Below are positions 10,381-64,000 of a DNA stretch of 64,000 bases, in pieces; the stretch's first letter is position 1; each line of letters starts with the position of its first letter. The stretch is from Methanocellales archaeon (GTDB lineage: Archaea > Halobacteriota > UBA148 > JAUWXC01): NCBI GenBank assembly GCA_030018435.1, contig JASEEY010000005.1, forward strand, positions 38 to 64,037. Reading direction: 5' to 3'. A program made the position numbers and the translations under genes. A model generated the notes under the pieces. The model worked only from the letters and a program-made list of their open reading frames with translations. It made no database searches and was not told the origin of the DNA.

Positions 10381-10860
10381 TCAGCCTCTTACGGTTATGT
10401 CTGCAATCAGCTGCTGGCTTGCGACATCAACGATCTTGATGTTGACTGATGCGCCAATTGCAGGCAGACTAACCTGCGCTTCAGCAGTGGTTGGTACTGT
10501 TAGCGTCAAGACACGGTCTGTAGTGCTGTTGTATATATACATGCTCTCGCCTGTCGATAATTGGTCAGTGGTTGCAAGGGCATTAGTCACCTCTTTACCG
10601 TCTACCAAGACTTTTATAGACGAACTCGCTAGAGTTATCGTGTCTCCGCCTTGGTGATCCAACTTGATGTAATTTGTGGTATCAACTTGTGCCACCGTAC
10701 CCCTAATGCTCGCCTGGGGCGCCATCGCTGGGGGCGCCATGCCGAAGACGAAGGCTGCGATGATGGCTGCGAGAATGACCGTAATGGCGACCATTAGAAT
10801 GACGCCAATGACTGGGCTCACTGCATCTTCGTTCGCTCTGAATTTCCTATTTGCTTTCAT
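10381..10860 (-). CDS. Archaeal type IV pilin-like protein (DUF1628 type), paralog of 9736-10215
   Basis: N-terminus DAVSPVIGVILMVAITVILAAI; C-terminus (SQQLIADITVRG) shared with the first copy. Confidence 0.7.
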   Translation of the reverse strand: MKANRKFRANEDAVSPVIGVILMVAITVILAAIIAAFVFGMAPPAMAPQASIRGTVAQVDTTNYIKLDHQGGDTITLASSSIKVLVDGKEVTNALATTDQLSTGESMYIYNSTTDRVLTLTVPTTAEAQVSLPAIGASVNIKIVDVASQQLIADITVRG

Positions 10861-21394: not shown

Positions 21395-23239
21395 ATGATG
21401 AAGAATATGACGATACCAAAGACGATTTGGCGGCTTCTAATTATAGCAATACTCATAGCGATTGTATCTGCTTTGGGGATATCGTTATTAACCGTAAGTG
21501 TTTCTGCGGATGGAGGGATGGGTGGACCCGATTGTGTTCACTGTCATGATATCAAAGGAGGAGATGAGGGGCATAAGGGACATGTGGACGTTTCCGCGAT
21601 GAATCAAACGAATTCAATTCACGTCAATTTAAACAGCGGTGTTAGTACGTCCTTAAATCCTGATAATAAGCGTTGCTGGGCATGTCACGGCAATGGCACT
21701 CAACCCTCTGGACACGGGCACCCATCTAATTACAAGAGCCCTTACATCTGCTTGGATTGCCACATTTCTGGTGGCTCTCAGGTTGAGAAGTATAATGCTC
21801 CAATCGTCTTTGAGCACTACAGGAATGGCATGGACATAAAGGCGGCAACAAATGCATCAACAGACGTATTGGCCTGTATATCCTGTCATCAAAACGTGAA
21901 TGAGATGGTCTTATCAAACTCTGACCCTGATTATGGTCACAACATAACTGATGTAGATAAAGACGGAGTCCAAGGTGGCCCTAACTGTACCTATCACTAT
22001 GGCAGAAAGAGAACTGATCTGCAAACTGGTACTCCTCCCTATACCAACTGTTCATACTGCCATCAGAACGCCTCGACGGCATTTCCCTTTGTCAATGCAG
22101 ACCTCAAGAACCTTGAGAATCACACGCCAAGGATTACGAATCCCAGTTGTGTTGATTCCAGATGTCATGATGTTGGCCGGATACACAATTCAACACTGAA
22201 GATGCCGACGACCGTGGATTATACGCTGTGTACTGACTGTCATGGAGGCAAGAGCAGACATAACGATACTCTGGATTGCACAAAATGTCACGGGAATGCC
22301 ACGAACAAGATTCATCCAATCTTATATCTTGCATCTGACGGTACTTTTTCCACTTCGAACGTTTCGGCAGTGAACTGTATATCATGTCATCAGGAAGGAT
22401 ATATGGGCCCGCAAGTTTCTGATCCACTTCACCACAGCGAAGTAAACACAGGACAGCGCTGGGGCGATTATTGGACAGACGATTTATCCGCATGCACATA
22501 CTGTCATGACGATACAAAGCATGACGCAATAGCATTGGGAAGACCGGCAAATTGGAAAGGAGACAACATCGTTGGCTCATCCGTCAACAACAGCTACTGG
22601 TGTGCAGGCTGTCATTATCAGGGATACCAAAGTGGTGCACACAGCTACGAAAATATGGTTAACACATTCAATGGCTCTGGCTTAAACATCCCGCCAGAAA
22701 TCACCAACGGCACGTATGCACCCAACGTAACAGGATTCTATGAACACGTATGCGCTAACTGGTCAGATGCGCTCTGCAAAGAATGTCATGGCAAGTTTGT
22801 CAGCGGTTATAATGTAACCGAACTCATGCACAACGTTTCAGACGGCAGCTGCGGTAACTGCCACTATGACTTTGCATATATGAATGATGCCCGAAATGCG
22901 CCCACGAAATACGTGAACAGCACGATGTTCAATGCGAGCGTGCATGGGCCATCGTCGGGAATAGGGTGCGTAGACTGCCATACTACCTCAAATCATCCTT
23001 ACCCGGAGTATTACTGGAAGTGGTGCGAGTGCTGCCATGCCGTACAATCTAACCCTGTCGATGATACGGACAGGCACAACGTCACATCTGATGTGCGGAA
23101 CAACATGGTTGACGGTGTTTCAGTCCTCAGCATAATCGACTGTAAGACATGCCACAATGCAACCTCTTACGAAAATGCAAAGACCAATTTTGGATTGTGC
23201 AGATGGTGCCATACATATCCTGATAAAACATATGAGTGA
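21395..23239 (+). CDS. Multiheme c-type cytochrome, about 16 CxxCH plus one CX4CH, N-terminal signal anchor
   Basis: Counted CxxCH: CVHCH, CWACH, CLDCH, CISCH, CSYCH, CTDCH, CTKCH, CISCH, CTYCH, CAGCH, CKECH, CGNCH, CVDCH, CECCH, CKTCH, CRWCH, plus CVDSRCH; hydrophobic N-terminus. Confidence 0.85.
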   Translation: MMKNMTIPKTIWRLLIIAILIAIVSALGISLLTVSVSADGGMGGPDCVHCHDIKGGDEGHKGHVDVSAMNQTNSIHVNLNSGVSTSLNPDNKRCWACHGNGTQPSGHGHPSNYKSPYICLDCHISGGSQVEKYNAPIVFEHYRNGMDIKAATNASTDVLACISCHQNVNEMVLSNSDPDYGHNITDVDKDGVQGGPNCTYHYGRKRTDLQTGTPPYTNCSYCHQNASTAFPFVNADLKNLENHTPRITNPSCVDSRCHDVGRIHNSTLKMPTTVDYTLCTDCHGGKSRHNDTLDCTKCHGNATNKIHPILYLASDGTFSTSNVSAVNCISCHQEGYMGPQVSDPLHHSEVNTGQRWGDYWTDDLSACTYCHDDTKHDAIALGRPANWKGDNIVGSSVNNSYWCAGCHYQGYQSGAHSYENMVNTFNGSGLNIPPEITNGTYAPNVTGFYEHVCANWSDALCKECHGKFVSGYNVTELMHNVSDGSCGNCHYDFAYMNDARNAPTKYVNSTMFNASVHGPSSGIGCVDCHTTSNHPYPEYYWKWCECCHAVQSNPVDDTDRHNVTSDVRNNMVDGVSVLSIIDCKTCHNATSYENAKTNFGLCRWCHTYPDKTYE

Positions 23240-23245
23240 TGAAAT

Positions 23246-23668
23246 ATGCTGTCAAGTAGAAGAAAAGCGGTCATAATCGGCATTGCGATGGTGATGGTTG
23301 CCACATCACTGACAGCATATGCCCTATTTTTCGGCGGTCACACGCTCTACACTAGGAAGGATTCTCCAGATTACGGCTCTGCAGAGTTCTGCGTTAAATG
23401 CCATCCGGATGTCGTCGCCACAGCGATGGTCGGCGCGCATCAAAACGCAGGATGCATCTGCCATGGCTATCGTCCAGAAGAGGGCATCAATTTAGCGCAC
23501 AACCTGACCAAGCAGATATACTGCACGAACTGCCATTCGAACTATGACGCAGAAGGAAACATCACCATTCATGAAGGGGTGAGCGGATTAAATCAGTCAG
23601 GGCATTATATTACGAACTATACCGCTACGCTTTACAATAATTCACAACAATTCTTCAGCGGTAGTTAA
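23246..23668 (+). CDS. Small membrane-anchored c-type cytochrome (2-3 heme sites)
   Basis: N-terminal TM; CVKCH, CTNCH and an atypical CICH. Confidence 0.6.
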   Translation: MLSSRRKAVIIGIAMVMVATSLTAYALFFGGHTLYTRKDSPDYGSAEFCVKCHPDVVATAMVGAHQNAGCICHGYRPEEGINLAHNLTKQIYCTNCHSNYDAEGNITIHEGVSGLNQSGHYITNYTATLYNNSQQFFSGS

Positions 23669-23670
23669 CT

Positions 23671-24171
23671 ATGGTCAGAAGAGCGTTAATTTTGTTCACG
23701 GTATTAATTTTACTGGAAGCGTTGGTTCCTATAACGAGCGCCACCGAGATTCAGTGGCATGGATATGAAGAGGGTATGGCGCTTGCCAACTCCAACAATA
23801 TGTCAGTTATGATCGATTTCTATACGGAGTGGTGTGGGTATTGTAGAAAACTGGACGACGAAGTGTACGTGGATGACGAGATCATCGCGTTATCTGAAAA
23901 TTTTGTGAATATCAAGGTCGATTGTAATGCCCGTCCTGATCTACGGCAGAAATATGCTGTAACGGGCTACCCGACGATCGTGTTTTTAAATTCCAATGGA
24001 GACGAGGTTCATAGAGTGTATGGATATGTACCAGCAGATGAGTTCAAAACAGACATGCAAATCGCCTTAAACCTAAAAGATGCAACACCAACACCCACGC
24101 CTGGATTTGAAGCAGTACTTGGCGTAGCGGCGTTGATTAGTTTGGCGTTCAGGAGAAAATCGAATGACTGA
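23671..24171 (+). CDS. Secreted thioredoxin-fold thiol:disulfide oxidoreductase with PGF-CTERM sorting signal
   Basis: Signal peptide; WCGYC active site; Thr/Pro linker then PGF + TM + RRK tail (TPTPTPGFEAVLGVAALISLAFRRK). Confidence 0.75.
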   Translation: MVRRALILFTVLILLEALVPITSATEIQWHGYEEGMALANSNNMSVMIDFYTEWCGYCRKLDDEVYVDDEIIALSENFVNIKVDCNARPDLRQKYAVTGYPTIVFLNSNGDEVHRVYGYVPADEFKTDMQIALNLKDATPTPTPGFEAVLGVAALISLAFRRKSND

Positions 24172-24816
24172 TATATCTCCTTTAATCGCATTTTCTGCCG
24201 GAATCGTGAGCGTACTATCACCGTGCGTGCTCCCTCTTATTCCTGCGGTGATGACATACTCTACAGGAAAAGGACGGCTCAGGCCGTTGGCGATAGTGAT
24301 TGGACTATCGATGGCCTTCACCTCCATGGGCATAGTAGCCTCAGCCTTGGTATGGCATTCATCAGTTATGCACAATACCTGCGAATGGCTGCTGCTCTCA
24401 TAATCGTTTTTCTTGGACTTTACATGTTGTCCGAGTCACTAGAACGGAAATTGTCGATGCTAAAAAGCAGGATACTACCGAGTTTGAATCTTCCTACATC
24501 ATCTTCTAGCGTTTTAGGAGGGTTTATACTCGGACTATCGCTGGGCATCGCATGGGTGCCCTGCATAGGTCCGATACTCGGCACCATCTTAGTATTGGTA
24601 ACAATAAAAGCCAGCCTGTTCTATGGCGCGATGATGCTATTCATTTACTCACTTGGGCTAGGTATTCCGATACTTGTAATCGGCTATGTCACAAAGTCAT
24701 CTATGCAACTCGGCAAATTTGCTCGATACGGTGCAACCATCAAACGTGTTACCGGGGCAGTGCTGATCGTCGTTGGGTTATATATGATGTTACATTTTCT
24801 ACCCATAACGTTTTAA
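24164..24816 (+). pseudogene. ccdA: Cytochrome c biogenesis protein CcdA (DsbD-like), interrupted by a 1-nt frameshift near 24345-24356
   Basis: The N-terminal half (SPCVLPLIPAV) is ORF 24164-24403 and the C-terminal half (WVPCIGPILG) is ORF 24223-24816 in another frame. The junction at ttgg(g)tatggc suggests loss of one G. Confidence 0.7.
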
Positions 24817-25050: not shown

Positions 25051-25356
25051 ATGCCTGCTACCGTATCTGTGCGATTGGACGATGAAATGATAAAGGATAT
25101 CGAGCTATTAAAGGAAGAGTCACAAGTGGACAGGTCTGAGATGGTGAGGAAACTATTGGACAGGGCATTAAAGCAAGCCAAGATCGAAAAAGCCATAGAA
25201 CTGCTCAGAAAGCATAAAATCTCAATTGGAAAAGCCTCTGAGTTAGCCGGGATGACTTTGTATGAAATGATCGAGCTGTGCAAGACGCGTGACATACATA
25301 TCGGGTACTCTATAGGGGACTTAAAAAAGGACTTGGATCAGTTTCCGATCAGATAA
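25051..25356 (+). CDS. UPF0175-family antitoxin (RHH-like N-terminus + UPF0175 domain)
   Basis: Sequence pattern ..IGKASELAGMTLYEMIELCKTRDI. Confidence 0.55.
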   Translation: MPATVSVRLDDEMIKDIELLKEESQVDRSEMVRKLLDRALKQAKIEKAIELLRKHKISIGKASELAGMTLYEMIELCKTRDIHIGYSIGDLKKDLDQFPIR

Positions 25357-25366
25357 GGTGTCTTAG

Positions 25367-25876
25367 TTGAGAGCAGTGTTGAATTCTACTCCGCTCATCT
25401 ATCTAGCCAAGATAAATCACTTAGACTTGTTAGGAAAAGTTTATGATCAAATCTACATCCCCACTCCTGTTTATGAAGAAACTGTCCAGAGGGGTCTGGA
25501 AAAGAAATTTTTGGATGCTGATATCATCAAGAATGCCGTTGACAGGGGAACCATTGAAGTTAGAGAGTTGACCTCGGAACAAAAGGCTGAAGCGAGGAGA
25601 CTAATCCAATTTGCAAATATAGGCGGAGGAGAGGCTGAAGCAATAGTGCTGGCAAAACATCTTAACATCGAATTGATGATAGATGATGTGGTTGCCCAGG
25701 GCGTTGCCAGAACTTTAGGATTAGATGCACACTGGACAACCAGTTTTATAATCAGACTGGTCAGCAAAAAGTTAATTTCTCGAAAAGAGGCCAGAAAAAT
25801 GATTGAAGATTTGGTGAGCAGTGGATACAGGATAAGTGAAGAAGTGCTCATCGAAATACTAAAAGTGTTGAGTTAA
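25367..25876 (+). CDS. DUF3368/COG2405 PIN-like toxin
   Basis: 169 aa; partner position downstream of the UPF0175 antitoxin; paralog of 28006-28503. Confidence 0.55.
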   Translation: MRAVLNSTPLIYLAKINHLDLLGKVYDQIYIPTPVYEETVQRGLEKKFLDADIIKNAVDRGTIEVRELTSEQKAEARRLIQFANIGGGEAEAIVLAKHLNIELMIDDVVAQGVARTLGLDAHWTTSFIIRLVSKKLISRKEARKMIEDLVSSGYRISEEVLIEILKVLS

Positions 25877-27680: not shown

Positions 27681-28022
27681 ATGATTTGTAATGTGATGAA
27701 GATGGGCAACGTCCAGGTAAGAATATCTAATGAGATGTTAGGCGAGATAGACAGGCTGAGCAGGATGCTCGAAAGCTCAAGATCAGAAGTGATCAGAAAA
27801 GCCCTTGATGATGGCATAAGTCGCATAAAAATGGAGGCGACTCTGAGAGATTACATAGATAACAAGATAACGTTGTGCAAAGCAGCTGTACTGGCTGGAA
27901 CGTCTGTCATGGAGTTTGCAGAGTACGCTGCAGAAAAGGGCATCCCATTCATGAGATATGGGGCAGAGGAGGCTGAAGAGGATCTGTTAAGGTTGAGGAA
28001 ACGGCATGAAAGTGCTGATTGA
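27681..28022 (+). CDS. UPF0175-family antitoxin (second copy)
   Basis: RISNEMLGEIDRLSRM.. RHH-like then ..LCKAAVLAGTSVMEFAEYAAEKGIP. Confidence 0.55.
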   Translation: MICNVMKMGNVQVRISNEMLGEIDRLSRMLESSRSEVIRKALDDGISRIKMEATLRDYIDNKITLCKAAVLAGTSVMEFAEYAAEKGIPFMRYGAEEAEEDLLRLRKRHESAD

Positions 28023-28503
28023 CGCTTCTTCACTGATAGCGTTAACAAAGACAGGATCGCTTGACCTCATCAAGGACGTCTTCGGCAGAGTTTTTATAAC
28101 CAAAGAGATCGAGAAAGAGATCACATCTGGCACTTTAGCTGACGTTGCAATCCTGAAGGGGAAGATCAAAGACTGGATTGAGGTCATCGAATCTCCCAGT
28201 TCCAAAGAATATTACACGAAACTAAAAGGACTGGATGAGGGAGAGTGCAGCATCCTCGGATATGCAAAGGAAAATAAAGACGTTTTACTCATATTAGATG
28301 AGGTAGAGGGCAGAGCAGTCGCAGAAGCCGAAGGTTTTACTCACACCGGAACTCTTGGATTGATCGTCTATGCCTGTGAAAAACGCATAATATCAAAATC
28401 CAGGGCGATGGGAATAATCAAGAAGCTATCCAGAAGTGAGTTCAGAATGACCACTGAGCTATATGACTGGGCCTTGACCAAGATAGAGGCTGTCAAGAAG
28501 TGA
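28006..28503 (+). CDS. DUF3368/COG2405 PIN-like toxin (second copy)
   Basis: MKVLIDASSLIALTKTGSLDLI.. PIN-like N-terminus; overlaps the antitoxin stop. Confidence 0.55.
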   Translation: MKVLIDASSLIALTKTGSLDLIKDVFGRVFITKEIEKEITSGTLADVAILKGKIKDWIEVIESPSSKEYYTKLKGLDEGECSILGYAKENKDVLLILDEVEGRAVAEAEGFTHTGTLGLIVYACEKRIISKSRAMGIIKKLSRSEFRMTTELYDWALTKIEAVKK

Positions 28504-58192: not shown

Positions 58193-59289
58193 GCGCAGAA
58201 GCGAAAACGGAAGGAAAGGATGAACTGACAAAGAAAAAGCTGATTGACATCATAGGAGAATTTTACGGTCAGCTACAGAGCGAGAGAGTTCCTTACCTCA
58301 ATCTGCCGACCAGAACCAAGGCTAACATTGAATACAATGATGCGTCAGAGGTGTGGGTTTACGGCGACAGAGAGAGTGTGAGGAGTGCAAAAACCGTCAG
58401 GGGGGCATACCAGTTACTCAAAACCTCATATGTAGTGGATTTTCTGAACGCCCAGTTAGATCAGGCAAAATCTTCCACGTTGAGGGAGTTGTACTATATC
58501 TCCGAGAACTGGGACTTGGCAAAGTTTAGGGAACAGCAGGAAAGCGATAGGTTGATAGAAGACCTGGAAATCGTGAGTGAGCTACAAAGGGAGAACTTCC
58601 ATATCAGGCCGGAGGAGGATGGCGCCTCTGTTTTGGGTCCCATCAAGATCAAAGAGCAGACGAGAAGGGGCACAAAGATCATCCATTGCCAAGATGACGT
58701 TGGCGAAGGGGGGTACCAGATACCCAACAACGTCGATAACCTGGAGTTTTTGGAGCACGATGCAAAAATGATCATAGCGATAGAGACTGGTGGTATGAAG
58801 GATAGGCTGATTGAGAACGGCTTTGACGAAAAGTTTAACACGATCATAGTGCACCTGAAGGGTCAGCCGGCCAGAAGCACAAGGCGATTGCTCAAACGGA
58901 TGAACGAAGAGCTGAAGATACCCGTAGTGGTGTTCACCGATGGGGACCCGTGGTCGTATAGGATATTCGCTTCCGTCGCATATGGGGCGATAAAGAGCGC
59001 CCACCTATCAGAATACATGGCGACTCCTGCAGCACAGTTCATCGGCATTCGCCCCTCGGACATAGTCAACTATGAATTACCAACGGATAAGTTGTCTGAC
59101 CAGGACATAAGAGCTTTGCATTCGATGCTCTCTGATCCAAGATTCGAAAGTGAGTTCTGGCAGAGCGAAATCAATCTGCAACTTGAATTAAACAAGAAGA
59201 GCGAGCAACAGTCGTTAGCGAAGTACGGATTGGATTATGTGACGGATACATATCTGCCAGAACGGTTGAGTGAGATGGGTGTCATCTAA
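58189..59289 (+). CDS. top6A: DNA topoisomerase VI subunit A (Spo11 homolog)
   Basis: 366 aa; Toprim region IAIETGG; ATGA overlap with top6B. Confidence 0.9.
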
Positions 59290-60185
59290 AGTCTCTCGGT
59301 TTTTCTAAACGTGGATACCTCGCGCAGTAGATTGTGCAGTGTAGGGGGCAATTTTCCCTTCAGCATGTAAATGCTCCATGCGTAGTATATGTATGCATAG
59401 ATACCGAGAACGATGTAGAGAGAGCTGAACATGATCTCGCTCGGCAGCAGGATGTCCATGAGGATTGTGACGGTCGGGATTATCAAGATAGGTACAGAGC
59501 CCCAGACCCAGACGCCAACATTATGCCACAGATTATACTCAGTAGTGATGCCAATCCACCATATGAAGAACATCGCCGTCACCACATAGGGCACAAAGCC
59601 CCTGGGATATTGTACCATGAACAGAAATGCTGCGAAGGTGATGTTTATCAGCACGACGATTTTGATGAGAAACAGTATTGGATCAGAAGGATATGTCCCG
59701 CCCCCCAACCTTGAAGACGTTCCTTTGCTAACAGCTCCTCTGCCACCAAACGCGCCAACGCGCTCCTTTAGGTCGTCGATGCTGACGTCGATCGTATTCA
59801 TCTTCTTGGTTGCTTCTTCCAGCCTAGCCTGTACGCTAGCAATCTCCTTGAGTAGCGGCTTCAGCCGCCTGTACACGCCTTCCTCAAATGCGGTGTCAAT
59901 CATGCTCTCGAATAGAAGCGCCTGTTTGACCAAGGAGAAAGCGCCAAGCCCTGCGCCTATTCCAATAAACAAGATGATCGAATTCTTGATGAGCTCCAAC
60001 TTGCTGAATTCATAGGTAAAAACGCGGATGAGTGGGAAAATTGAGATATAAATCAGGAATAACGATGCGCATAGTGCGCAAGCGATGTTCAATTTTTGTA
60101 ATAACGACAAACGCTTCTCTTGCATTGTCACGTGCTCTCTCCACCCGTTATTTAGGGCATTATGTATATCTTTTCTTCGGTGCAT
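59286..60185 (-). CDS. Hypothetical polytopic membrane protein with internal coiled coil
   Basis: ORF hydropathy only. Confidence 0.4.
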
Positions 60186-60981
60186 CTGGATTGCTATGCA
60201 AATAATGATCGGTGCTCACTGAAACAGGGCTAACCTCGGTATGGCTATGACATCCCAGACAAGTCCAGAAGCCCTTGGATATGTACTGTCCATCCGGAGC
60301 GATGTTTCCGCCTGGCTGCCCGAAGGGGTTTCCGTCCATGTACGATGAGCTCTCACTGTTAGCGCTGGTATAAAACGGCACGTGAACATTGTCCTTGCTT
60401 AACAAGTAGCCCACATGTACGACACTTGAAGAAGCATTCGGGAATAGATCTGGATCGTTGTATTGATGCACTGCATTGCCGTGACACCTGTCATCATCAC
60501 AACCCCTCGCGGTCGTGTTCGTGTGCGTTGTGCTCAAACCAAAAAGCGTTGCCTTGTGGCACAGGAAGCACATCTCATCGACGTTGATATATCCATCTCC
60601 ATCGTCGATGCTCACGAGCAACAGTTTTCCATCACTACTTCTCTGCCACTTTTCCTCGGTGGCGTTCCATATCCATACATCGCTGACACCATTACCGTCT
60701 CCATCGTAATTCGTCCATATGGTCGCATTGGTTTTGTCATAATCAATCCCGCCGACCGATAGATAGGTGAGATAGTCGGTGTTGTTTGCAGCCCTCCGAT
60801 GCGCTTCGTAAACATCACCCATGTCAGCGCTCAACTGATCTGCCACATCAATATGGCAGCGCAGGCACCCTACATTGGTTCTGAAGGTATGCTGACCTGC
60901 GAATAAGGAGTAAACTGCCGGTAAAACAAATAAGATGATGGCAATCGCCGCTAGGATTAATAGCACGGTTTTTTGTTTCAC
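60160..60981 (-). CDS. Membrane-anchored c-type cytochrome (3 CxxCH + 1 CX4CH) with two dockerin/EF-hand-like Ca-binding loops
   Basis: CLRCH, CFLCH, CLGCH, CDDDRCH; loops NYDGDGNGVSD and DDGDGYINVDE; N-terminal TM with LFAGQH motif. Confidence 0.7.
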   Translation of the reverse strand: MKQKTVLLILAAIAIILFVLPAVYSLFAGQHTFRTNVGCLRCHIDVADQLSADMGDVYEAHRRAANNTDYLTYLSVGGIDYDKTNATIWTNYDGDGNGVSDVWIWNATEEKWQRSSDGKLLLVSIDDGDGYINVDEMCFLCHKATLFGLSTTHTNTTARGCDDDRCHGNAVHQYNDPDLFPNASSSVVHVGYLLSKDNVHVPFYTSANSESSSYMDGNPFGQPGGNIAPDGQYISKGFWTCLGCHSHTEVSPVSVSTDHYLHSNPDAPKKRYT

Positions 60982-61019: not shown

Positions 61020-61754
61020 TTAAACGCTTTTTACCTTAAACTCTTCCAGCGTCATGTAGAGATAAAGCGCAATCATGATGATGAATAGCAGGAGCCCAGA
61101 ACTCTTCACCATCTGCACCAGCGATTTGATGAGTCCATATTCCCCTCCATACTTGGTGACGTAGATTGGATTGGCTGGATCCTCGATGAAGTAATAGCCG
61201 AGATTCTCGATGATGATGGGTTTTTCATTTAGTAGGATTGCCTGACCCTCGATCTCGTTTCTGCGCACAACCCAGGGATCAACTCTGGGATTGGCATCAC
61301 CTTTTGTCCTGTATATCCCATCCTCAATGGAGTAAATCCTGTGCACCACAGGATGCACGACGTATGCAGTCTCAAATTTGATTATGTCGCCCTCCTGGGG
61401 ATTCACGAAAAGGTTCTGCATCAAAACCAAGTCACCCTTGTTGAACGATGGTGCCATACTACCAGAGCCTATAGCAACGAAGTAGATTATGTTCAGGTAA
61501 AGGATGATTCCCAGCAACATCACGATGATGAGCGGAAGCGCAGACGTCACGATGCGCGGCTTTTTGGAAAGTTCCTCATACCTGCGCATGATCATGTTGA
61601 TGCGGTCTTCCCTGCTGCGCTCAATAAATCTATCTGCGATTTTTCCGAGCAGGGCAAATGGGTAGATGGCGCTCCTTCTCTTGATCATATACAGCGTGCA
61701 AAAGATGGCGATTAGAACGCCCATCCAGATGACTAAGCCAATCGTATTGCTCAT
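61020..61754 (-). CDS. Archaeal type I signal peptidase (S26B/Sec11-like)
   Basis: Catalytic-Ser motif AIGSGSMAPS, conserved His/Asp region; two flanking TMs. Confidence 0.75.
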   Translation of the reverse strand: MSNTIGLVIWMGVLIAIFCTLYMIKRRSAIYPFALLGKIADRFIERSREDRINMIMRRYEELSKKPRIVTSALPLIIVMLLGIILYLNIIYFVAIGSGSMAPSFNKGDLVLMQNLFVNPQEGDIIKFETAYVVHPVVHRIYSIEDGIYRTKGDANPRVDPWVVRRNEIEGQAILLNEKPIIIENLGYYFIEDPANPIYVTKYGGEYGLIKSLVQMVKSSGLLLFIIMIALYLYMTLEEFKVKSV

Positions 61755-61868: not shown

Positions 61869-62405
61869 TTATGGATAACCGCCACCAGATGTCGTGGTTG
61901 TGTTAGTGCCTTCTGCAGTGAAGTTACCAATAACCCATCCCGTCACTGGATCGTGATCTGCTGTGAACGTCAATGTAGTCGCTCTGATCCATGTGATGTT
62001 CACGCCGGTGTGGGTGTGGCATCCAATGCATGCTTCATTTGCCCCTGTTTCAAGTCCAGATGTCATCGCACCCTGATAGAACTCTGTGTGGGATTCGTTT
62101 GCGTGGAGAAGTTCATCGTCCACCTTGTCATGGCAAGCTACGCACGGCGGTGATATTGAAGCATGTTGGGTTGCATTATCGAAGCCAGCTTTAGGGGTTT
62201 GGTGACAGGCCCCGCACTTAAAATAATAGTGCGGCCCACCCGCAGCCAATTCATCGTATTCTGCACCGTGACACTTGGAACAATCCACATCCTTGGGTCC
62301 TATGAATGCGTGCTGCCCTGCAAACAACGAAAGCACTGATGGCAGTACGAACAGACCGACTGCTAACACTGCTGCTACTAACACAAGCGTTTTGTTTCCT
62401 ACCAT
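61869..62405 (-). CDS. Membrane-anchored tetraheme c-type cytochrome
   Basis: CSKCH, CGACH, CVACH, CIGCH; N-terminal TM plus LFAGQH motif. Confidence 0.75.
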   Translation of the reverse strand: MVGNKTLVLVAAVLAVGLFVLPSVLSLFAGQHAFIGPKDVDCSKCHGAEYDELAAGGPHYYFKCGACHQTPKAGFDNATQHASISPPCVACHDKVDDELLHANESHTEFYQGAMTSGLETGANEACIGCHTHTGVNITWIRATTLTFTADHDPVTGWVIGNFTAEGTNTTTTSGGGYP

Positions 62406-62559: not shown

Positions 62560-63939
62560 TCACCATTTGATGTAAATCTTCGTCCTTACCTCGTACCTGT
62601 TATTGTGGTTGTCTTCGATTAGAATCCTTACATCACGCTCTCCTGTCCTCGCCCTGCTTAGGTCATACTGATCGACCGGTATGTTGGAGCCGTGACAGGA
62701 GTCACACCACCCTTTGCCCATATGCTTATCATGAAGTCTATATGTCGAACTGTAATCTTTATAGCGGTGGCAAATGTAGCACTGCTCTTTTGGATTTACG
62801 TTTAGCACCTCATCCTGATCATGACATCCCACGCAAGTGATCTCATCACCGTGTTTCTCGTGAATTCGCCTGGAGTCTCCATCGTACGATTTGCCGCTGT
62901 GACAGTTATTGCATGATGTTATCGGCGTGATATCAGGCACATCTAAACCATGACACCAATAACAGAAATCACCGGATTCACCAATGTCCTTCTTGGCGTG
63001 CTTCATGTGCACATCCGAGTAAACCTTGTTAGGATCGTATCTCTCTGGCGAGCCATGACAGATGGCACAGTATTCCCCGGAAGGTTCTAGGGTAGTGCTT
63101 GCCGGAATGGCGTGACAATCGCCACACAGCGCTTTATCATCATGCTTCTTGTGCATGCTCGCATACCGGCTTGAGTAATAAGCTGGATCGTACTTGCTCC
63201 CATGACATAGTTGGCAACTGTAATCATGCGGCATGCTTGGATGACATGAGTAACAATCCGCTGTCGTCGGTGTCACGCTTGGATTTTCATGGCATAGTGC
63301 GCAGTTATCATTGTGCGTGACCATCAAGTTCGAGTTGTGGCAGTAGATACAGTCGCCCGTGGTGGATACATGCACCGCTTCTATGTCGCCATGGATCACG
63401 TGACACGCATCACAGGCAGTGTTCTTAGTTGATATGGCATTCTGAACTGTTGGATCCATACTGGCGTGACATGTCGAGCAGTTATAGCCTCTATTCTCAT
63501 GCTCTATCGTTAGGTCATTGTCATGACAACTCAGGCAATCGGGGGTTAAACTTGATTGATGTATCTCTGTCATGTTGTGCACTGCTTCATGACAATTTTC
63601 GCATGTATATACAATGGGGACCCCCGCCGGCGTCCCGTGCGAGCCGTGTGGTACATTTGCAGGGTCATGACAATCAGAACAGATAATGTTTAAGTGACAT
63701 TGATTGCAGGTCTCGTCCATTCCAAAATCTTTTTCTATATGAGGATTATGCACCTGATTCGCAGTGAGATTCGTAGGATCGGTTCCAAGTTGGAAATATC
63801 CACATGGAGTGTATACCGCAGGCCATGTATATTCTGGGGGAGACCAAGTCTGCCATACCGTTTTGGCCTTATATTCGGTATGACAATTCCAACAAACGGT
63901 GGATCGGTCTATAGGTGGCGTCGTAAAAATCGACAACAT
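62560..63939 (-). CDS. Multiheme c-type cytochrome with 18 CxxCH in 459 aa; 5' end probably frameshifted/extends past window end
   Basis: 18 CxxCH counted. No signal peptide on the annotated ATG; an alternative frame just upstream encodes a hydrophobic stretch plus CSQCH. Confidence 0.75.
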   Translation of the reverse strand: MLSIFTTPPIDRSTVCWNCHTEYKAKTVWQTWSPPEYTWPAVYTPCGYFQLGTDPTNLTANQVHNPHIEKDFGMDETCNQCHLNIICSDCHDPANVPHGSHGTPAGVPIVYTCENCHEAVHNMTEIHQSSLTPDCLSCHDNDLTIEHENRGYNCSTCHASMDPTVQNAISTKNTACDACHVIHGDIEAVHVSTTGDCIYCHNSNLMVTHNDNCALCHENPSVTPTTADCYSCHPSMPHDYSCQLCHGSKYDPAYYSSRYASMHKKHDDKALCGDCHAIPASTTLEPSGEYCAICHGSPERYDPNKVYSDVHMKHAKKDIGESGDFCYWCHGLDVPDITPITSCNNCHSGKSYDGDSRRIHEKHGDEITCVGCHDQDEVLNVNPKEQCYICHRYKDYSSTYRLHDKHMGKGWCDSCHGSNIPVDQYDLSRARTGERDVRILIEDNHNNRYEVRTKIYIKW

Positions 63940-64000
63940 GACATTGAGAACAGGTGGTGGTATCGATCGCCAACGTGGAAGGAGATAAAAAGAGCATTAT

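Follow-up and report, generated by a model that had tools for sequence, protein, structure and literature searches.

The 64,000-nucleotide stretch of a Methanocellales archaeon analysed here (the window; contig JASEEY010000005.1) encodes on its minus strand cyt273, a tetrahaem c-type cytochrome that carries two short acidic loops between its first and second haem sites. With moderate confidence, we read these loops as structural Ca2+ sites of an extracellular cytochrome, and not as a detachable docking module. Ca2+ binding, and its effect on stability or potential, we infer from homology, from the position and conservation of the loops, and from predicted secondary structure. Once the protein is exported, loops 1 and 2 would bind Ca2+, of which the cytoplasm holds little and the outside plenty, and the ion would clamp a beta-stranded insertion onto the helix of haem 2 and stabilize the extracellular fold. 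Because the exiting helix of loop 2 carries the haem-2 cysteines and histidine, the ion would also bring two positive charges to within roughly two turns of helix from haem 2, perhaps tuning this haem. A first-pass annotation of this DNA had read the loops as dockerin- or thrombospondin-type Ca loops that could dock a small cytochrome onto a scaffold. The Ca-loop part of that claim stands as a prediction, with loop 2 of the EF-hand type at the level of the family and loop 1 of the DxDxDG type; the dockerin part does not.

The gene and the elements of its product are laid out as follows (all on the minus strand; aa, amino acids):
60160 to 60981: the cyt273 gene, a 273-aa tetrahaem c-type cytochrome with a GTG start, from the open reading frame (ORF) call and homologues
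60883 to 60981: N-terminal hydrophobic export signal or anchor, ending in LP..YSLFAGQHTF, His31 invariant
60853 to 60867: haem motif 1, CLRCH (aa 39-43), with C39, C42 and H43 invariant
60571 to 60798: ~77-aa insertion (aa 62-137) that holds both acidic loops, a predicted beta-meander whose sequence has weak features of Kelch blades
60679 to 60705: loop 1, DGDGNGVSD (aa 93-101), a 9-residue DxDxNGxxD at a predicted beta-hairpin tip
60574 to 60609: loop 2, IDDGDGYINVDE (aa 125-136), EF-hand-type, 12 residues, with Ile at position 1 and Glu136 at position 12
60556 to 60570: haem motif 2, CFLCH (aa 138-142), sitting on the exiting helix of loop 2
60481 to 60501: haem motif 3, CDDDRCH (CX4CH; aa 161-167), aligned with haem 3 of the nearby cytochrome cyt178
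60247 to 60261: haem motif 4, CLGCH (aa 241-245), from the family alignment and the cyt178 alignment

The ORF is a genuine gene, since it has 31 homologues in the protein collection and 65 archaeal genomic loci in which the haem motifs are kept. Short plus-strand ORFs overlapping 60426-60818 were set aside, because the minus frame holds the conserved haem motifs and every homologue match. Across the 31 homologues, the haem cysteines and histidines and five further histidines are invariant, and the most conserved stretch of the family is that of haem 3 (C161, D163, C166 and H167 invariant). This stretch, CDDDRCHGN (60481-60501, minus strand), has three aspartates in a row and could be another cation site. 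The named database entries of the family that were examined are all called 'hypothetical protein'. The peptides that the first-pass annotation had singled out (60571-60711) are indeed the minus-strand translation NYDGDGNGVSDVWIWNATEEKWQRSSDGKLLLVSIDDGDGYINVDEM, aa 91-137 of this ORF, and they do lie between haem sites 1 and 2 (CLRCH and CFLCH). It was equally right about a small extracytoplasmic cytochrome: the N-terminal signal, which is a single hydrophobic segment (aa 1-31; helix 3-27 in the AlphaFold2 (AF2) model), five N-x-S/T sequons and an adjacent signal peptidase I all mark cyt273 as a predicted exported protein. The AF2 model has a mean predicted local distance difference test score (pLDDT) of 71.8, with 86-97 in the insertion. 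A Foldseek search of this haem-free model against the PDB gave no match at E<=0.001 (best 0.75), a result that is uninformative for a haem-free cytochrome. One protein from the representative search, P0072 (700 aa), is a family member that has the N-terminal part (haem 1, the insertion with both loops, and haems 2-3) fused to long PKD/Ig-like repeats with many N-x-S/T sequons, which stand where the C-terminal part would normally follow.

The case for a Ca2+ site begins with loop 2, whose residues are conserved at one alignment position in most of the 89 distinct homologues that we compared:
Loop 2 position 1: Asp in 72 of 89
Loop 2 position 3: Asp or Asn in 74 of 89
Loop 2 position 5: Asp, Asn or Ser in 69 of 89
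Loop 2 position 6: Gly in 51 of 89
Loop 2 position 8: Ile or Val in 79 of 89
Loop 2 position 12: Glu in 81 of 89

All six canonical EF-loop features are present in 46 of these homologues and five of them in 22. A PROSITE-like EF-hand pattern occurs in 52 of the 89, always at the loop-2 site and with x-CxxCH directly after it. Canonical copies are carried by homologues from anaerobic methanotrophic archaea of the ANME-2 type, Methanoperedens and GoM-Arc1, as in the Methanoperedens/ANME-2 loop ...LDTNNDGSIDTNELCSFCH. We take this conservation at a fixed position to be a stronger argument than counts against shuffled sequences, in which the D-x-[DN]-x-[DN]-G core is expected 0.75 times and is found twice in the 64 ORFs of the window (19.5 k aa). 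Profile comparisons point the same way. The Pfam EF-hand models give sub-threshold matches in 13 of 32 members, and eight of ten members scanned singly match an EF-hand model, always at profile positions ~7-27 (the loop and the exiting helix). The loop-2 part of a profile built from the insertion also matches genuine EF-hand repeats in the protein P0087. In the AF2 model, the loop spans residues 122-133 and a helix starts at 134, the tenth position of the loop, where the exiting helix of canonical EF-hands also begins; this helix (134-142) bears Glu136 together with Cys138, Cys141 and His142 of haem 2. Loop 2 therefore shares with canonical EF-hands (PF00036, calmodulin-type) the family consensus D-x-[DN]-x-[DNS]-G-x-[IV]-x-x-x-E and a predicted exiting helix that begins at position 10. 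It differs from them in being unpaired, in having no entering helix, in scoring below threshold, and in that its exiting helix is the CxxCH haem helix. From alignment and model, we describe it as a predicted EF-hand-like loop-helix, not a canonical EF-hand domain and, at the level of the family, as a predicted Ca2+-binding loop of the EF-hand type.

Giant multihaem cytochromes (MHCs) that adjoin family members have an EF-hand-like loop of their own shortly before a haem motif, for example DMDDSGVIETDEMPYTCEDCH. Such loops are seen in the 1759-aa MHC of locus L004 (~aa 1010) and in a 1208-aa segment at L051 (~aa 455), so an EF-type loop before CxxCH may recur in these archaeal cytochromes.

Loop 1 is of a different kind. 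By a motif test and the AF2 model, the window copy caps a beta-hairpin with a core of the form D-x-[DN]-x-[DN]-G-x-x-D; in the model, it joins strands 87-90 and 102-106 at a pLDDT of 90-97. The 9-residue form D-x-D-x-N-G-x-x-D is expected 0.004 times per shuffle of cyt273. A D-x-D-x-N-G-x-x-D loop between two hydrophobic strands is the arrangement of integrin- and FG-GAP-type Ca sites, members of a DxDxDG motif class that is said to have been described by Rigden and Galperin in 2004. Loop 1, flanked by the two hydrophobic strands of its hairpin, is like the DxDxDGxxD loops of integrin alpha chains and FG-GAP repeats in this respect; it is unlike them in that cyt273 has a single loop in a lone beta-meander, and no propeller. 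Pfam gave no FG-GAP or VCBS match to cyt273 and weak Kelch-like ones, so the likeness is one of motif and not of domain membership. On motif and model, we call loop 1 a putative beta-hairpin loop of the integrin-type DxDxDG class, by motif resemblance. Kelch or FG-GAP membership was rejected, since the matches are sub-threshold or weak and multi-repeat, and is kept as a description of the strand pattern.

A number of observations weigh against structural Ca2+ sites, in the window copy above all. Loop 1 is found in 15 of the 89 distinct homologues and absent from 74, and it is missing even in the closest relatives, P0002, P0003 and the homologue at locus L001; it cannot, therefore, be essential to the family. 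The homologues without it have a short non-acidic turn in its place (36 of 89), other insertions (32), or lack the whole insertion (6). The best EF-hand score in the cyt273 family is 21.0 bits, below the gathering cut-off like all the others, and the window protein itself reaches E=0.0047 and 16.8 bits against EF-hand_1, with a cut-off of 25.4. An entering helix is absent, loop 2 being preceded by a beta strand, and there is no second EF-hand to pair with. Counted back from Glu136, the window loop 2 reads I-D-D-G-D-G-Y-I-N-V-D-E: it retains EF-loop positions 3, 5, 6, 8 and 12 and has Ile in place of Asp at 1, which gives it five of six EF features, but it is one residue short of the family consensus and fails the PROSITE-like pattern. 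Its closest relatives deviate elsewhere, with Arg at position 5 in L001 and P0003 and Asp at position 6 in P0001 and P0002, and one subclade has hydrophobic-Pro-Gly at positions 5-7. Since each member deviates differently (deletion, Arg 5, Asp 6), the alignment suggests that the constraint on loop 2 has relaxed in the clade of the window, L001 and P0001-P0003. Predicted Ca2+ binding is thus less certain here than in Methanoperedens and ANME-2.

These deviations are what one would expect if the loops, at least in the window copy, bound no metal at all and were the Asp/Gly/Asn-rich tight turns of an extracellular glycoprotein, with a vestigial likeness to Ca loops. The missing Asp1 and the missing residue of the window loop 2, the different ligand positions lost in its clade, the short non-acidic turn that replaces loop 1 in so many homologues, and HMM (hidden Markov model) scores that are all sub-threshold would fit this explanation. 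We consider it unlikely, as without a ligand the family-wide conservation of positions 1, 3, 5 and 12, together with that of Gly6 and Ile8, would be difficult to account for, and loop 1 of the window is a complete DxDxNGxxD.

Structural Ca2+ sites, our preferred reading, have parallels near haems in other proteins. Structural Ca2+ lies near c-type haems in bacterial dihaem cytochrome c peroxidases/MauG and in NrfA. There, Ca2+ within ~10 Å conditions the haem environment, in different folds and at sites that are not EF-hand loops. Closer in function is the OmcE nanowire of Desulfuromonas soudanensis, on which cryogenic electron microscopy (cryo-EM) has revealed putative surface Ca2+ sites (bioRxiv 10.1101/2025.10.22.684050). 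Calcium is proposed there, too, to stabilize an extracellular tetrahaem nanowire subunit; the fold and lineage are unrelated, and the sites are cryo-EM densities that were not described as EF-hand-type loops.

Both loops lie in an insertion of residues ~62-137 that has no counterpart in cyt178 or AvECN in the family alignment made with hhalign. It lengthens the spacing between haems 1 and 2 from 17 residues in cyt178 (His46-Cys64) to 94 in cyt273 (His43-Cys138); smaller further insertions lie between haems 3 and 4 of cyt273. AF2 places strands at 78-82, 87-90, 102-106 and 111-114, and the sole helix is the one that follows loop 2 (134-142). A profile of the insertion alone, run against 1.84 billion representative proteins, found 27 proteins, 18 of which agree with the cyt273 family in size and in where the match lies. 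The other matches are weak and to multi-repeat proteins: Kelch (in the strand region), low-complexity sequences, and one multi-EF-hand protein (in the loop-2 region). In that search the insertion was found in no other protein architecture, and it is therefore not a mobile module.

This bears directly on the dockerin reading, in which the insertion would be a true dockerin-type module plugging into a cohesin on a scaffold. The idea was a reasonable one, since numerous proteins with dockerins or cohesins, a few of them with S-layer domains as well, have been reported from ANME genomes (PMC9012536). Type I dockerins (PF00404) also resemble cyt273 in having Asp/Asn/Gly-rich 12-residue Ca loops, two of them ~30 residues apart, and loops 1 and 2 start ~32 residues apart (D93 and I125), roughly the spacing of dockerin segments. 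The sequences themselves do not bear the resemblance out. The pattern given for the two peptides, D-x-[DN]-x-D-G-x-[VI]-x-x-[DE], has no literal match in either of them. PF00404 gives no match at E<=10 to the window protein or to ten members scanned singly, and it is absent among the 25 families listed, of 41, in a Pfam scan of 32 members; as a positive control, the same library detected Dockerin_1 in P0087 at 9e-16. None of the 89 distinct homologues fits a PROSITE-like dockerin signature, and 81 of the 89 copies of loop 2 have Glu at position 12, where dockerins have Asp. Loop 1 is followed in the AF2 model by strands (102-106, 111-114) and not by an F-hand helix; since strands flank it, it is a hairpin tip and there is no loop-helix F-hand, and it is missing altogether in most homologues. 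cyt273 accordingly lacks the tandem segments of ~22-residue loop plus helix, with Asp at 12, that define a dockerin. Loop 2 is built into the haem-2 helix and is not a separable module, and the insertion as a whole is never a module elsewhere.

Nor did a partner come to light in the sequences that were scanned. No cohesin was found in the 64 window ORFs of at least 100 aa or in three giant MHCs neighbouring homologues, and none is listed in the gene table of locus L066. Within the window and the neighbouring MHCs scanned, then, the dockerin reading of cyt273 fails on the very ground that the first-pass annotation had named for abandoning it, and we regard a dockerin here as extremely improbable. 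The alternative of a thrombospondin type-3 loop was rejected too: Pfam gave no match, and the twelfth residue after loop 1 is not the Asp that it would require. In a neighbour of the cytochrome cluster of a Hydrothermarchaeota genome, a 774-aa ORF at L064 (minus strand), thrombospondin-type-3-like repeats do occur (DRDLDGDGLLNSQE, DTDGDGVVDGDD).

What kind of cytochrome carries the loops can be told from its relatives and neighbours, which comprise the following:
61869 to 62405, minus strand: cyt178, a 178-aa tetrahaem cytochrome resembling an orthologue of AvECN (8E5G) and of MmcX of Met12
61020 to 61754, minus strand: archaeal/endoplasmic reticulum-type signal peptidase I, SipW-like, between cyt273 and cyt178
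59286 to 60185, minus strand: 299-aa polytopic membrane protein with ~6 hydrophobic segments, co-conserved with the cluster
21395 to 23668, plus strand: MHC614, with 16 CxxCH motifs and one longer-spaced motif, and the dihaem cytochrome p140

The sole solved structure with sequence similarity to cyt273 is 8E5G, that of AvECN, the extracellular cytochrome nanowire subunit of Archaeoglobus veneficus (PMC12954529). The family profile of cyt273 (A1) matches it at E=4e-9, and that of cyt178 matches it over its full length at E=1.5e-42. Aligned with each other by hhalign, the families of cyt273 (A1) and cyt178 (A2) give 99.9% and E=2.7e-32, collinear over the four haem motifs, the conserved distal histidines and the N-terminal LP...SLFAGQH, a motif common to cyt273, cyt178 and AvECN. 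By these profile comparisons, cyt273 appears as a paralogue of the AvECN/MmcX-type cyt178 encoded two genes upstream and, because the alignment is collinear and leaves residues ~62-137 unmatched, as an AvECN-type tetrahaem cytochrome with an insertion of ~77 residues. An alternative register from hmmsearch, with haem 2 of cyt273 on haem 4 of AvECN, was rejected in favor of the collinear alignment; the shift comes from the local similarity I..(D/N)E.C..CH.

MmcX is the four-haem AvECN homologue of 'Ca. Serpentinarchaeum aceticum' Met12, where it has the highest expression of any cytochrome (~ten times the median); produced in Shewanella oneidensis, it was shown to accept electrons (PMC11176372). 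It is 171-172 aa long, against 178 aa for cyt178. As a full-length AvECN homologue at the MmcX position, cyt178 makes it likely that the window encodes a nanowire subunit. That Methanoperedenaceae have AvECN homologues is already known in a general way (PMC13046784). cyt273 shares with AvECN and MmcX the four haem motifs in the same order, the N-terminal LP...SLF.GQH signal and the conserved distal histidines, and also a neighbourhood with a SipW-type signal peptidase, a ~6-transmembrane (TM) protein and topoisomerase VI. It differs from them in its ~77-aa insertion with Ca-type loops, its insertions between haems 3 and 4, and the CX4CH form of haem 3.

The order of the cluster is kept in Met12 (MmcX, ..., sipW, 6-TM protein, ..., top6A, top6B; PMC11176372), where the counterpart of the 299-aa membrane protein is a 275-aa 6-TM protein in the same place; in the window, too, topoisomerase VI A and B lie downstream of the ~6-TM protein. 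Unlike the window, the Met12 MmcX locus has no gene at the position of cyt273; for this reason, and because MmcX and cyt178 differ in length, the window was judged not to be Met12 itself, in spite of the synteny. The locus of the closest genome, L001 (Methanocellales archaeon CSMAG_2511), is fully syntenic and has a cyt273 gene (69% identity), and the 299-aa membrane protein accompanies the cluster in L001, L028, L029, L048, L051, L062 and L064. The signal peptidase scores 61 bits against TIGR02228 (cut-off 51.85) and falls just under the cut-offs of the Pfam S26 and S24 models (22.5 against 22.9 and 20.9 against 23.3 bits); peptidases of the SipW type are linked to cytochromes in 13 other loci as well as in Met12. 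The shared TM segment, the LP...SLFAGQH motif and the adjacent SipW peptidase suggest dedicated processing, as for SipW and TasA. The His right after the predicted cleavage site in SLFAGQH proteins may ligate a haem, and the N-terminus of p140 (23246-23668) has a weaker form of the motif, ALFFGGHTLY.

Beyond this cluster, the family is tied to large cytochromes. In 38 loci, the ORF immediately preceding the family gene shares 37-59% identity with p140 (tblastn), and tblastn aligns MHC614, at ~40% identity, with the last ~570 aa of the giant MHCs found there; we take p140 and MHC614 as orthologues of the dihaem cytochrome and of this C-terminal portion. An MHC with at least ten haem motifs (up to 3,300 aa) lies beside the family gene or the dihaem gene in ~27 loci; these giants include S-layer-domain (L012), NosD/beta-helix (L003) and CarboxypepD_reg (L006, L066) types and resemble ANME MHC types described by Chadwick et al. 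In many loci, an AvECN-like gene, the signal peptidase and the membrane protein come after the family gene. The cyt273 family is thus almost always found beside a dihaem cytochrome and often beside a giant S-layer-type cytochrome, an adjacency that supports a physical or functional partnership with large cytochromes without identifying a contact site. The first-pass annotation had pictured a scaffold and an electron conduit; its genomic side is borne out by this tie to giant S-layer and beta-helix MHCs, its dockerin- or cellulosome-like mechanism is not.

The arrangement varies in two groups. Loci L005-L056 have a conserved trio of giant MHC, ~150-aa dihaem cytochrome and cyt273-family gene, which is split in the window: MHC614 and p140 (21395-23668) adjoin genes for thioredoxin and CcdA (23671-24816), and cyt273 lies 37 kb away beside cyt178. 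The window, L001 and P0001-P0003 form the only clade with the family gene apart from the dihaem and giant-MHC genes, and loop 2 has drifted there. In homologues of the Hydrothermarchaeota type, the insertion and the dihaem and giant-MHC neighbours are all absent.

These patterns invite a second explanation, in which the insertion and its loops form a Ca2+-dependent interface to a partner, analogous to docking and not homologous to the dockerin-cohesin pair. The candidate partners would be the dihaem cytochrome, the giant S-layer or beta-helix MHC, or neighbouring AvECN-type subunits or filaments. The p140 orthologues directly upstream in 38 loci and the MHCs adjoining in ~27 are in its favor, as are the joint absence of insertion and neighbours in the Hydrothermarchaeota type and the drift of loop 2 in the one clade (window, L001) separated from the dihaem cytochrome and the MHC; nanowire surface loops, moreover, mediate bundling in D. 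soudanensis OmcE. Adjacency, however, is a functional link that says nothing of a contact surface, Glu12 stands one residue before the first haem-2 Cys, which makes loop 2 part of the core and not an exposed appendage, and loop 1 is variable. An interface of this kind is possible, in our view, but doubtful; structural Ca2+ sites remain the reading that we prefer.

Three further features of the window lie outside this argument. A 459-aa ORF with 18 CxxCH motifs (62560-64000, minus strand) has no signal sequence, and its start is overlapped by an ORF in another frame that contains CSQCH and runs off the window end; the two probably belong to a single, larger MHC whose frame is broken near 63930-63960 by a frameshift or an error in the sequencing. 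At 10381-10860 (minus strand), the window encodes a type IV pilin of the archaeal kind (Pilin_N, 1.4e-24); in Met12, a pilin is the other exceptionally highly expressed gene besides MmcX (PMC11176372). Two pairs of RHH/UPF0175 (RHH, ribbon-helix-helix) and PIN-like genes (25051-25876 and 27681-28503, plus strand), probable toxin-antitoxin modules, lie between cytochrome-maturation genes and aromatic amino-acid operons.

How ANME-2, Methanoperedens and related archaea move electrons out of the membrane, across the S-layer and on to partners or minerals is an unresolved problem, and reviews count the spatial organization of ANME and Methanoperedens MHCs and the existence of cytochrome nanowires among the open questions (PMC13046784). 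To this problem the analysis contributes a previously unannotated family, paralogous to the one type of nanowire cytochrome from archaea whose structure has been solved. Full-text literature searches returned no account of EF-hand-type loops in multihaem cytochromes or of the cyt273 subfamily, and the preprint by Guberman-Pfeffer mentions neither calcium nor signal peptides; a conserved EF-hand-type loop fused to a haem-binding helix is thus without a description in the literature that we could search. More speculatively, and with rather slim chances of being right, the cyt273 family could be a Ca2+-dependent adaptor, in which the insertion docks the tetrahaem core on the dihaem cytochrome and the giant S-layer MHC while the core continues into, or nucleates, a wire of the MmcX/AvECN type. 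If this were true, the surface conduit and the extracellular wire of ANME-2, Methanoperedens and related archaea would meet at a calcium-gated junction, and the electron-conduit assembly imagined in the first-pass annotation would be realized by a device other than a dockerin. The window's own loops make a modest and in part degenerate example; what holds moderate interest for archaeal extracellular electron transfer is the feature as seen across the family, along with its gene linkage. Together, the AvECN paralogy, the linkage to MHCs and the EF-type loop offer a concrete candidate subunit, with residues that can be mutated, for tests of how such conduits are assembled.

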